In this document: piece by piece, positions 12,970-47,041 of the stretch | Layout of the letters: every line of letters begins with the position of its first letter | Numbering within the stretch: position 1 is the stretch's first letter | Notes under the pieces: model-generated | Databases searched by the model: none | What the model saw: the letters and a program-made list of their open reading frames with translations, nothing else | What the model was told of the DNA's origin: nothing | Source: Desulfurococcaceae archaeon | GTDB lineage: Archaea > Thermoproteota > Thermoprotei_A > Sulfolobales > Desulfurococcaceae | Assembly: GCA_038888155.1 (NCBI GenBank) | Contig: JAWAJB010000002.1 | Location: 96,001-160,000, forward strand | Reading direction: 5' to 3' | Length of the DNA stretch: 64,000 bases | Translations under genes and position numbers: made by a program

Positions 12970-13275
12970 CTATATTTCATGGCTTTGGGGATCTCCCCTA
13001 CGAGCTCCCTTAAATATGTGTCGTGAAAACAATACGCTTAATAAGACGAGCAATAAACTCATTGAAACCACTATAAGCAACAAGTGTACGGGGAAATCGC
13101 CGGCCCCGAAGCATATTGGTATAAACCCAATCAGTATACAAGCCCCAGTAGTTATAGAAACGCCAGATCCATCCTGTTTAAATTTAAGTAATGGAATTAT
13201 GGTACCAATAAACGCTAGAACAAGGCCAGCGAGAATCATAACCAAACCTAGTTTAAACAGCTTGGAAGAATTCAT
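12970..13275 (-). CDS. DUF131-type small membrane protein
   Basis: Two TM helices around GACILIGFIPICFG. Confidence 0.8.
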   Translation of the reverse strand: MNSSKLFKLGLVMILAGLVLAFIGTIIPLLKFKQDGSGVSITTGACILIGFIPICFGAGDFPVHLLLIVVSMSLLLVLLSVLFSRHIFKGARRGDPQSHEI

Positions 13276-13535
13276 TTCAAGATCCCGCCTAAGAGCATAA
13301 ACGAGGTAACAGAAACAACTAGTAGCACAATAGCGAGAATGACTAAGACCCTCGTTACCCGTTCGCTTGTACCGAAAACTATTGGTAGCGGCCCAATAAT
13401 TAACACGCCACCTCCTTCTATCTGTTTGTCCTCATTTCTAGTGCGGCTACCTTGAATTATAGAGATAAAAACCAGTAACGAACCAATGACGAACAAGATA
13501 AATGCAACTGCAAATATTGTCAAGGGAGCCACCAC
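13272..13535 (-). CDS. DUF131 (TIGR00304-like) small membrane protein
   Basis: GGGVLIIGPLPIVFG signature; 4-nt overlap with downstream paralog. Confidence 0.85.
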   Translation of the reverse strand: MVAPLTIFAVAFILFVIGSLLVFISIIQGSRTRNEDKQIEGGGVLIIGPLPIVFGTSERVTRVLVILAIVLLVVSVTSFMLLGGILK

Positions 13536-13675
13536 GGCTATCCCCTAAGTCTCATTTTTGTGAACTACATTATTAAATTTTAAGGAGTAATTCTTAATTC
13601 AGCGGGCTTTCAAAGGTAAAGATAGCAACTCACGTAGTGACAAATTAATTGTAAATATTTAATGAAGAAAGGAGT

Positions 13676-13857
13676 GGGCAACATGACCCCCATACTCCCA
13701 ACCAATGGGAAATACTAGTAATGAGCTGGTAACTGCTAGGCATTCGGAGACTACTCCCACCCGGGTCACCGGGTGGGAGTAACCCCGTAATGCCCGGCTA
13801 ATTACCAGCTCATTACCAGCTAAATCCCACTAATTGAGTTTGAGTGGGGCCATGCCC
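13676..13857 (-). ncRNA. Candidate rod-shaped structured ncRNA with terminal bulge-helix-bulge-like motif
   Basis: GC-rich island folding back over ~180 nt; perfect 13-bp apical stem (13752-13764/13769-13781); about 10 plus-strand A.C oppositions (G-U on minus) versus one G.T; upstream TATA and downstream pyrimidine tract on the minus strand. Confidence 0.75.
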
Positions 13858-13879
13858 TAAATATATATACTCTATCTTG

Positions 13880-13898
13880 TACTTAAGTTAATTTTTTT
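13880..13898 (-). promoter_or_regulatory. BRE/TATA-like promoter for the ncRNA candidate
   Basis: Minus strand reads AAAAAAATTAACTTAAGTA; the CTTAAGTA box lies 23-30 nt upstream of the first G of the hairpin (13857). Confidence 0.5.
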
Positions 13899-14010
13899 GT
13901 ATAACAGGTTCTTATCAACGATAAAATGAGTATTGTTGTATATATTTTTGTATAATTTTGTTCAAGTAATACATTTACCATGATATACGTTGTATTACAT
14001 CCACTCATAG

Positions 14011-14583
14011 TTAATAAGTTGAGATCATATATGGTGAAACCAACACAATCCCTCTTTGGTGAGATTCCTGAATCGCAGAAGGATGTATATATAACCCGTA
14101 CATTAAGAGAATCGCCCTTGTTGATAAAAGCTTTTTTGTTTGAATTATTTGATTTACTTTTTCGTGGAAGCTTTTAATGTCTTCCCCGTGGATTCGGGAC
14201 TTTGATTCTCCGAAGATGAGAACAGATTCATTGCCATTATTAACTCCCTCCCCATAGAAATCTAGCTCAACAAACCTGTCTCCTAGGTCAAAGAAAGCCC
14301 TATCTAACTTATTTGTGGTTATTCCCATTTTCACGTATAGCCATGCTGGGAGAAAGCTTCTTGCAACGTCTTCTAATATCAGCCCAAAAGAATCGCTCAA
14401 CCGACTCATTTCCTTTGACAGCTCTCCTACATACTTTGCAATCTTCTCCATTCTCTCTACTAGTATCGCATTAGTCTTCTTAACTTCATCTATTTCTTTA
14501 GTAATCTCCTCAATTGATTTCTTAACTTCGCTGTATTCCTGTTGATCTTTATTGCTTTTTGCTTTCAGTAAAAGCATTGACAA
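14011..14583 (-). CDS. Coiled-coil plus PD-(D/E)XK nuclease-fold protein
   Basis: N-terminal heptad coiled coil, FGLILED linker, ELDFYG...FGESKSRI (D...ExK) motif; 5' end interrupted by an in-frame TGA at 14608-14610. Confidence 0.75.
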   Translation of the reverse strand: MSMLLLKAKSNKDQQEYSEVKKSIEEITKEIDEVKKTNAILVERMEKIAKYVGELSKEMSRLSDSFGLILEDVARSFLPAWLYVKMGITTNKLDRAFFDLGDRFVELDFYGEGVNNGNESVLIFGESKSRIHGEDIKSFHEKVNQIIQTKKLLSTRAILLMYGLYIHPSAIQESHQRGIVLVSPYMISTY

Positions 14584-14730
14584 AAACCCAACGCTGTCCC
14601 ATAAGCTTCATCCAGGGTCAACCATTAATAAGGGATTACCTGCAGTATTACCTTAAATGGGAACCTAGATCCGAGTTAATAGTGAATTGCTTAACAGGGT
14701 TTATTTTATAAATATCGCTATTAAATTCAG

Positions 14731-15552
14731 GTGTTCGCGTTGATTAGTGGATGGATTAGCAGCGAACAAATTTTTGAAGTCGTTAAAATGTTTCTCTCAA
14801 TCGCGATACTGTTTGTACTTGGGATTCAAGACTTGAAGAGCAGGGAACTTAGCGAAACGATCGTTTATCTGTTCTTGTGTTGCTCTTTAATAGGATTCAT
14901 TGTTTCTACCTTTATTCTCGGAAGCATGCAACCGATATTAAGACTCGCCTATGCAACAATATCACTTTTAGTTACTATAGGAGTTTTTTTAACGTTATAT
15001 AAGCTCAACTTAATAGGGGATGGAGATCTGTACATCTCTACATCTTTAGGACTAATGTTTCCTTATCCGATTACTTATAGGGCCACATTGGTGAGAACAG
15101 GAATTTTGCCACCCTCTCTTATAATTGTGCTTTACGCTTCTATGCTGGGAATCATCTTTTCTGCAATTAACGCGGTTATAGTAATCTCTAGACACAAGGA
15201 ATCCCTCGATGCGATGCCAACTAAAATTAAGATGATCATACCGTTTATTGCTAAACCCGTTAAATTAATTGATTACTTAGAAGGAAAGGTTAAGCACTGT
15301 CATCCAATTCAAGTCTTTAAAGTTGTCAACGGAAAAGTAATTTCCGAGTATAAGTTCCTTATAGATATAAACCAAGACATAAATGAAGAGGTTAAAGACC
15401 TGATAAATAAAGGCTCTTTAAGCCCCAATATCTACTTGTGGGTAACGCCTGGTCTACCCTACGTTTTCCACTTGTTACTGGGCTTGATTATGCTTTTTAT
15501 ATTAGGCGACAGTCCAGTTCTTTTACTTATATTCAAGCTTTTTGGTGTTTAA
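14731..15552 (+). CDS. A24 family prepilin/prearchaellin peptidase (PibD/FlaK-like)
   Basis: QDLKSRE (first Asp), IGDGD (GxGD), C-terminal WVTPGLPY; multiple TM helices. Confidence 0.9.
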   Translation: MFALISGWISSEQIFEVVKMFLSIAILFVLGIQDLKSRELSETIVYLFLCCSLIGFIVSTFILGSMQPILRLAYATISLLVTIGVFLTLYKLNLIGDGDLYISTSLGLMFPYPITYRATLVRTGILPPSLIIVLYASMLGIIFSAINAVIVISRHKESLDAMPTKIKMIIPFIAKPVKLIDYLEGKVKHCHPIQVFKVVNGKVISEYKFLIDINQDINEEVKDLINKGSLSPNIYLWVTPGLPYVFHLLLGLIMLFILGDSPVLLLIFKLFGV

Positions 15553-46966: not shown

Positions 46967-47041
46967 GGGCCCGTCGTCTAGCCTGGTATGGACGCCGCCC
47001 TCACACGGCGGAGGTCCGGGGTTCAAATCCCCGCGGGCCCA
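46967..47041 (+). tRNA. tRNA-Val(CAC), intron-less, CCA not encoded
   Basis: GGGCCCG/CGGGCCC acceptor stem, anticodon arm CCGCC-CTCACAC-GGCGG, T-loop GTTCAAATC; TATA-like tttatta about 30 nt upstream. Confidence 0.97.

Follow-up and report, generated by a model that had tools for sequence, protein, structure and literature searches.

A hairpin-forming element and a nuclease-like gene lie side by side on the minus strand of a 64,000-nt stretch of DNA from a Desulfurococcaceae archaeon (assembly GCA_038888155.1, contig JAWAJB010000002.1, positions 96,001 to 160,000), which is referred to here as the window. The hairpin is a conserved, previously undescribed structured-RNA gene. The gene next upstream is predicted to encode a coiled-coil protein with a nuclease fold, and the predicted rod-shaped RNA and this nuclease gene form an accessory two-gene module, the invariant pairing of which is our firmest new result. 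Close to the foot of the rod is a motif that resembles the bulge-helix-bulge (BHB) of archaeal introns, and the rod is hypothesized to be excised at this motif and circularised. Coordinates of the features are collected in Table 1.

The minus strand of positions 13660-13870 folded with a minimum free energy (MFE) of -126.5 kcal/mol (z = -13.8), a value that none of 200 shuffled sequences equalled, compared with -100.2 kcal/mol (z = -9.6) for the plus strand of the same stretch. The advantage of the minus strand persisted at 70 and 85 C, and the covariance model described below scored the hairpin at 111.5 bits on the minus strand versus 55.3 bits on the plus strand. The fold is a single unbranched hairpin with 40 G-C, 27 A-U and 10 G.U pairs. 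A preliminary description of this locus, made from the letters of the window, had noted a GC-rich island free of open reading frames (ORFs), with a 13-bp apical stem, a 4-nt loop and a middle stem of about 20 bp, and every one of these elements was recovered. The apical stem consists of 13 Watson-Crick pairs (13769-13781 with 13752-13764), the middle stem of 20 unbroken pairs, two of which are G.U (13800-13819 with 13715-13734). The GC content of the island is 0.51 versus 0.24-0.36 in the flanks, and no ORF of at least 40 amino acids (aa) overlaps positions 13676-13857. The same description had argued from the non-Watson-Crick oppositions that a minus-strand transcript was favored; the asymmetry was reproduced, with 10 G.U pairs on the minus strand versus one G.U pair in the plus-strand fold, and two A.C oppositions in symmetric loops. 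The apical loops of relatives are mainly GNRA-like (GAAA, GACA, GAUAA, GUGAA). Contigs of one DNA sequencing run stop at 13761 and begin at 13766, which is the hairpin apex; assembly breaks of this kind are often seen at palindromes.

Table 1. Features of the rod RNA gene and its partner gene in the window
Feature	Position	Strand	Basis or remark
Rod RNA (182 nt, hairpin with 77 predicted pairs)	13676..13857	-	folds of both strands, covariance model
Apical tetraloop UGAC	13765..13768	-	fold; closed by 13 Watson-Crick pairs
Outer helix A, 5' strand GGGCAUGGCCCC	13846..13857	-	fold; pairs with 13676-13690 across a 3-nt bulge UGU (13681-13683)
BHB 5' strand: H ACUC (13845-13842), then bulge AAA (13841-13839)	13839..13845	-	motif scan, position shared with relatives
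BHB 3' strand: H' GAGU (13697-13694), then bulge AUG (13693-13691)	13691..13697	-	motif scan
Predicted excised and circularised segment, 148 nt	13692..13839	-	BHB geometry and the rule of cleavage after the second bulge base
TATA-like box TTAACTTAAG	13882..13891	-	read from sequence; 25-34 nt before the helix
Conserved upstream motif TTATACAAAAAAA	13892..13904	-	family consensus ATACAAAAC; second copy at 13945-13955
Pyrimidine-rich tail ACUCCUUUCUUC, likely terminator	13664..13675	-	read from sequence; directly after the helix
Partner gene, 190 aa, N-terminal coiled coil and C-terminal PD-(D/E)xK nuclease fold	14011..14583	-	alignment, AlphaFold2, structure matches

No known RNA family accounted for the hairpin. 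An Rfam scan of the whole window placed only a tRNA-Val at 46967 above its gathering cut-off, a relaxed Rfam scan of 13500-14050 gave a best score of 19.4 bits against a cut-off of 100 together with microRNA matches at chance level, and Rfam returned 0 matches for 12 loci of the family. The flanks are neither tRNA nor rRNA, as the preliminary description had stated, and ARAGORN and Rfam found neither at the hairpin site. Signal recognition particle (SRP) RNA was rejected, the hairpin having no Rfam match and regular SRP RNA genes being present elsewhere in the same assembly. An intron of a tRNA, rRNA or protein gene was likewise rejected: no host gene was found, no ORF spans the site, and the flanks are promoter-like and pyrimidine-rich spacers. 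The end of a miniature inverted-repeat transposable element or insertion sequence was discounted, as the sole match in the 2.42-Mb assembly is the locus itself. A kink-turn reading of the basal loop, made by eye, was dropped; its G.A pairs do not lie next to a 3-nt bulge and are absent in one subgroup. In literature coverage that did not extend to subscription journals, no title or abstract described such an RNA, nor did the title or abstract of either of two papers in which DUF3782 occurs bear on one, and the consulted portions of two further papers (PMC12558985, PMC3326292) contain no mention of it.

A blastn search with the window DNA against 40 relatives returned nothing. Because the family is too diverged for blastn, homologues had to be found by synteny and with a covariance model. 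In 16 relatives of the same genus, 14 peptidase loci were located by synteny, and five of them carried a hairpin of exceptional stability, placed at the same distance and running on the strand that does not encode the peptidase. Covariation was strong across six sequences: 48 of the 67 consensus pairs had changed on both sides, such that the sequences diverged while pairing was kept. In these six sequences 88.5% of all cells were paired, versus 65.9% in shuffles (0 of 500 reached the observed value) and 35-45% when the partners were slid. The covariance model (R1), built from the homologues found by synteny, recovered the hairpin in its own genome and in 11 of the 16 genus relatives, with one weak match in a second genus. 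It marked one locus per genome and two in genome G013. Four genus genomes without the nuclease gene gave no model match; two of them are 62% and 78% complete.

The gene next upstream of the hairpin proved to be the constant element of these loci. At every locus its ORF lies on the same strand as the hairpin and spans about 190-250 aa, apart from the truncated second G013 copy with 138 aa. When 325 genomes of the order were screened with a profile of the nuclease, a cut-off of E <= 1.9e-56 delimited the orthologues, which amounted to 19 loci in 18 genomes: the window's own genome, 12 of the 16 relatives in its genus, four of five genomes of a second genus and the single genome of a third. All 19 loci had a hairpin of 67-125 pairs downstream of the nuclease gene on the same strand, across a gap of 93-221 nt. 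The carriers are labelled Desulfurococcaceae, Thermosphaera and Thermogladius, one of the Thermogladius being the complete chromosome of a named strain, and the RNA family spans three genera of Desulfurococcaceae. An alignment of the 19 full hairpins with MAFFT left the variable body too ragged for a second model. Metagenome loci with at least 39% nuclease identity (n = 23) were judged by full folds; an ungapped-stem screen was insensitive, scoring the true hairpins L091 and L106 at just 11. A hairpin was present at 21 of these 23 loci, about 90-220 nt downstream of the gene and on its strand, and the two exceptions were a contig ending 372 nt past the gene and a partial match of 40% identity.

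Beyond this range the rod was not seen. Among 50 remoter homologues (28-38% identity) there was no comparable rod, the best fold having 71 pairs at -77 kcal/mol and the rest at most 45 pairs, and six distant family-level homologue loci and two homologues from outside the order also folded without one. The 71-pair fold belongs to L118, a metagenome locus with 33% identity, which is the sole distant homologue with a longish unbranched fold downstream, from +35 to +235 past the gene. Among close relatives the distribution of the module is patchy and accessory. Genome G013 holds two module copies (L020/L044 and L032/L064), and the second nuclease copy matches the profile from position 57 on, with the coiled coil missing, an in-frame TAG and an ORF of 138-153 aa. 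The preliminary description had proposed a dedicated RNA gene. Its view of a stand-alone, structured RNA gene on the minus strand stands, but the gene is not a lone one, given the nuclease gene upstream at all 19 loci.

Which strand is under selection was read from the same 19 loci, where the strand of each hairpin was set by the neighbouring gene, independent of the pairing counts. The gene-sense strand was the more stable at every locus, by about 15-57 kcal/mol in 18 of them and by 3 kcal/mol in G013a. It carried 208 G.U pairs versus 45 A.C oppositions in total, with G.U in excess at 18 loci and a tie at one; the loci are related, and these counts are not 19 independent tests, so that a binomial figure for the bias is overstated. 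The bias recurs in three genera. Transitions in a DNA palindrome would give both kinds of opposition equally, and the excess therefore argues that selection acts on a transcript of the gene-sense strand and not on a DNA palindrome. A palindrome of the latter type would be a cruciform, a target of recombination or of a nuclease, or a mobile-element remnant, with its arms kept alike by DNA processes. The long, near-perfect inverted repeat beside a DNA-type nuclease fold would suit such an origin, as would the differing genomic contexts of the gene-hairpin pair across species and the break of DNA assemblies at the apex, but the G.U excess is unexpected under DNA homogenisation, the hairpin is single-copy in its own genome, viral contigs yielded no relatives of the partner protein, and no transposase gene was seen among the scanned neighbours. 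We regard a DNA palindrome as very improbable.

The partner proteins were compared by sequence and by structure. Thirteen of them align at about 45% identity with E106, D108, E126, K128 and H132 invariant. Pfam gave weak DUF3782 matches in 12 of the 13 and PDDEXK_10 matches in three, none at the curated cut-off, and PADLOC and NCBIfam gave no meaningful match. A sequence-profile search of the PDB returned coiled coils only. In the AlphaFold2 model (pLDDT 87.5), an alpha/beta domain comes after a helix of about 85 residues. For this domain, the best structure matches were the C-terminal nuclease domain of NucS (Z 11.9, rmsd 2.3, 104 residues aligned), AF1548 (Z 11.3), Card1 and Can2 (Z of about 10) and restriction enzymes; the top Foldseek matches of the protein were NucS and EndoMS, and its look-alikes in the Atlas belong to uncharacterised DUF8196, DUF3782 and PDDEXK_10 clusters. 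On the strength of the model, these matches and the invariant residues, the protein is assigned to the PD-(D/E)xK superfamily, with a restriction-endonuclease-like fold and the D...(D/E)xK motif.

Signals flanking the hairpin are consistent with a transcription unit of its own. The preliminary description had placed a TATA-like box upstream and a pyrimidine tract behind the element on the minus strand, and both were located there (Table 1). In the genus of the window and in genome G021, the block ATACAAAAC is followed 7-9 nt further on by YTTAAAT or TTAACT, about 25-30 nt before helix A, while the Thermogladius group shows GTATTATATGC instead. A pyrimidine-rich tail follows helix A' in most relatives, many with UCCU. 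Together, these signals fit a separate unit that would start at the foot of the rod and end just after it. The spacer between nuclease gene and hairpin contains two minus-strand copies of the motif TTATACAAAAA, at 13945-13955 and at 13892-13904, and the hairpin-proximal copy is the one conserved in the family.

The sole RNA library that shared words with the region was a set of metatranscriptome contigs, in which one contig of 445 nt corresponds to 13285-13728; evidence of this kind cannot show strand, ends or rare forms, and this library may contain DNA. The contig takes in a DUF131 gene and the spacer and reaches 53 nt into the 3' arm, with no joints or loose ends. The rest of a 1.8-kb stretch was uncovered in that library, which is neutral either way. 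The link between the 3' arm and the downstream DUF131 gene could be taken to mean that the hairpin is a cis-acting part of an mRNA, either a 3' stabiliser or terminator of the nuclease gene, which it always follows on the same strand, or a 5' leader of the downstream gene. A role as 5' leader cannot be general because the genes downstream of the hairpin differ among the loci and are often on the other strand. The spacer that separates the hairpin from the nuclease gene contains a conserved promoter-like block whose distance to the helix is fixed, and a rod of 77-125 pairs with a covarying BHB and a GNRA-type cap far exceeds the needs of termination. Oligo-U tracts suffice for termination in archaea. 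We consider a cis-acting part of either type improbable.

Archaeal BHB introns of tRNA and rRNA genes are excised by the splicing endonuclease, EndA, and circularised; cleavage takes place after the second base of each bulge. The preliminary description had proposed such a motif near the base of the window hairpin. A register with CCCC/GGGG and with H formed by ACUC/GAGU (four Watson-Crick pairs) was confirmed, as was the AUG bulge on the 3' strand, with 11 outer-helix pairs adjoining the motif and flanking helices on both sides. The 5' bulge fits less neatly. Held to three nucleotides, it leaves an inner helix of two pairs, then a 1-nt bulge and 11 pairs; taken as AAAC (4 nt), it is followed by an inner helix of 13 pairs. 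The description had also allowed for an alternative register without a BHB; the BHB register lies only 0.5-0.8 kcal/mol above the MFE at 37, 70 and 85 C. Cuts after the second base of each bulge in this register would release 148 nt, the size that the description had given.

In order to compare the motif between relatives, a motif-anchored site shared by the family was used in place of a loosely set generic BHB scanner, which returned mostly slipped registers inside perfect helices. The shared layout consists of helix A (4-14 pairs) and H (4 pairs), with each bulge 3' of H; the 5'-strand bulge reads A(G/A)(A/C), and the one that separates H' from A' on the 3' strand reads (A/U)A(A/G). Over 15 distinct motifs, H is paired in 57 of 60 cells, compared with 6-46 of 60 for a slid partner. 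Three positions of H show changes on both sides: G-C, U-A and A-U pairs are seen at position 1, and a switch from C-G to U-A at position 2 and likewise at position 3. H has six forms: GCCC/GGGU, GCCU/GGGC, UCCC/GGGA, GUCY/GGAU, the ACUC/GAGU of the window, and GCCY/GGGA, which starts with a G.A pair. In all loci with a helix A of at least 4 bp, the window included, the 3' bulge measures exactly 3 nt. The strict form (hBHBh') is present at 10 of the 19 loci, namely the window and those of G015, G002, G007, G006, G013b, G073, G071, G070 and G016, a count that includes the window, G013b and G006 with a 1-nt bulge after an inner helix of two or three pairs. The G016 motif, read by eye, is canonical, with A = GAUUCG/CGAAUC, H = GCCU/GGGU and b1 = GGC. 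Circles predicted from the motif measure 148-164 nt at 17 of 18 genome loci and 214 nt at the remaining one, and 154-164 nt in 14 new metagenome variants. The BHB idea thereby gains comparative support from the covarying 4-bp helix, the fixed 3-nt bulge and the narrow range of predicted circle sizes. In homologues the motif proposed in the preliminary description lies at a shared site and has a covarying H, while its strict form is limited to those ten loci.

The enzymes for such processing are encoded in the assembly of the window, which has two EndA-domain genes (94 and 31 bits) and an RtcB gene. One strong and one weak EndA-domain gene fits the two-subunit enzyme of crenarchaea, a type that tolerates relaxed motifs. 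The weaker gene (G000:C3:116569-116805, L086) lies about 1.6 kb upstream of the RtcB gene (C3:118380-119684, L087) on the same strand.

We propose that the hairpin is a stand-alone minus-strand rod RNA of about 185 nt, which is cut at the BHB, circularised and serves as partner of the adjacent nuclease, and we judge the case for this proposal as a whole to be evenly balanced. Transcription would start near the first base of helix A, from the TATA-like box about 30 nt upstream, and would end in the pyrimidine-rich tract just past the helix. The tRNA-splicing endonuclease would then cut both bulges and RtcB would join the ends, yielding two products, a closed rod that would measure about 150-165 nt (148 nt for the window) and a mini-hairpin of about 40 nt made by ligation. 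Speculatively, the very stable rod works alongside the nuclease next door, whether bound to it as a regulator, inhibiting it in the manner of an antitoxin or serving as a scaffold. As a best guess, the rod, very stable and probably circular, would bind the nuclease and keep it under control. The fuller version, a chromosomal module in which a viroid-shaped circle of about 150-165 nt made by EndA and RtcB is the working partner (inhibitor, antitoxin or scaffold) of the nuclease, is a doubtful extension.

Several observations weigh against this proposal. The putative TATA and start assignments were read by eye against the archaeal promoter consensus, and the link between nuclease and rod is drawn solely from gene order and co-occurrence. 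The metatranscriptome contig runs uncut through the predicted 3' site between 13692 and 13691 into the DUF131 gene; some molecules in that library, whether RNA or contaminating DNA, are uncut at this site. With a 5' bulge of exactly 3 nt, the inner helix in the window shrinks to two pairs. Not every member has the BHB: it is strict at 10 of the 19 loci, relaxed at eight and absent at one. The relaxed forms have zero or one inner pair next to a 3-nt 5' bulge or a first H pair that is G.A or C.A, and others lack helix A (G074) or have a 4-nt bulge (G021). The locus of G004 forms a perfect helix with no BHB bulges. Conservation of the motif in sequence (GCCCAG ... GGGGUAA) is unusual for recognition by shape and could mark a protein-binding site.

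The uncut contig, the relaxed or absent motifs and the sequence conservation are also what a linear rod would lead one to expect. Such an RNA would be unprocessed by the splicing endonuclease, its conserved basal loop (GCCCAG/GGGGUAA) would be bound in a sequence-specific way, perhaps by the nuclease, and the likeness to a BHB would be incidental. The MFE folds favor a plain internal loop in keeping with this, and the basal loop is kept in sequence and not in shape alone. A plain internal loop, however, does not predict the covariation of H with its double changes at three positions. The constant 3-nt spacing from H' to A' also speaks against the linear rod, as does the H of the window, which has no sequence relation to GCCC/GGGU yet keeps four Watson-Crick pairs. 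The linear rod is a possible explanation, if a somewhat unlikely one. The G004 hairpin (L055), a natural BHB-less variant, lies about 140 nt past the nuclease gene and is an almost perfect helix of about 200 nt, with 96 pairs and a folding energy of -174 kcal/mol.

The proposed circular rod shares features with several known systems. As with the archaeal BHB introns, it has a BHB-like motif at the base of its extended stem, the same enzymes would act on it (the assembly encodes EndA and RtcB), a circle is predicted and the host belongs to the Desulfurococcaceae, a family in which the 23S rRNA intron of Desulfurococcus, in work attributed to Kjems and Garrett from 1988, is reportedly an example of a circularised BHB intron. 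Unlike those introns, the rod is not inside a tRNA, rRNA or protein gene and has no internal ORF, its "exons" are about 15-30 nt per side of a separate transcription unit, its body is almost fully paired, and the invariant nuclease gene lies outside the element. Viroids and the bacterial 4.5S and 6S RNAs are rod-shaped and mostly paired, and the rod shares this long, mostly paired shape; it differs from viroids in being encoded by the chromosome and from 6S RNA in having no central bubble, and it is without the helix-8 loops of SRP RNA.

Type III toxin-antitoxin systems (ToxIN) consist of an endoribonuclease gene beside a structured RNA gene. The module resembles them in combining a nuclease gene with an adjacent small structured RNA gene and in its patchy, accessory spread. 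Unlike in ToxIN, the nuclease has a PD-(D/E)xK fold, the RNA is one long hairpin and not a set of tandem repeats, the RNA gene lies downstream with its own promoter-like block, and no defence or toxin-antitoxin model matched. To our knowledge, the known archaeal BHB circles are intron by-products, rRNA intermediates or permuted SRP RNA. The last of these offers a precedent: in Thermoproteus, the tRNA splicing endonuclease trims SRP RNA at a BHB, and ligation of its ends gives a stable circle (Plagens et al. 2015; PMC4731332). Like the rod with its BHB-like motif, this RNA is neither tRNA nor rRNA, the circularity of the rod being only predicted. The Thermoproteus RNA differs in that its function is known and that it is a permuted version of an RNA already described.

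What sets the locus apart is that a whole transcription unit seems to exist solely for a BHB-bearing rod and is inherited with an uncharacterised nuclease gene, the product of which belongs to a wide, unstudied superfamily (DUF3782, DUF8196, PDDEXK_10). If the circle is real, archaea use their tRNA-splicing machinery for dedicated heat-stable circular RNAs, and the rod would offer a first functional handle on that nuclease family. If the module of circle and nuclease is as proposed, it would be the first case in archaea of a gene dedicated to a circular RNA and paired with a protein partner.

The assembly that contains the window (G000, window at C2:96001-160000) measures 2.42 Mb with 6.43% contamination, compared with 0.9-1.5 Mb for the 16 genus relatives. 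SRP RNA is encoded at two loci in it, one on contig C75 and one on C3, and more than one genome may be present. In genome G002, the region upstream of the nuclease gene (L028, 1-785) has no ORF of at least 70 aa and is unusually long for such compact genomes.

The genes around the hairpin are of an archaeal chromosomal type, comprising hypE, hypC, hypD, two DUF131 genes, and genes for a prepilin peptidase, a PadR protein and pterin synthesis. When the peptidase locus of G002 (L004) was compared with window positions 12970-15552, a 162-aa gene was found to separate the DUF131 pair from the prepilin peptidase gene. This slot between DUF131 and peptidase is occupied in the window by the module, while the module of G002 lies elsewhere on the same contig. 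The module is therefore in different places in the two genomes and moves between contexts.

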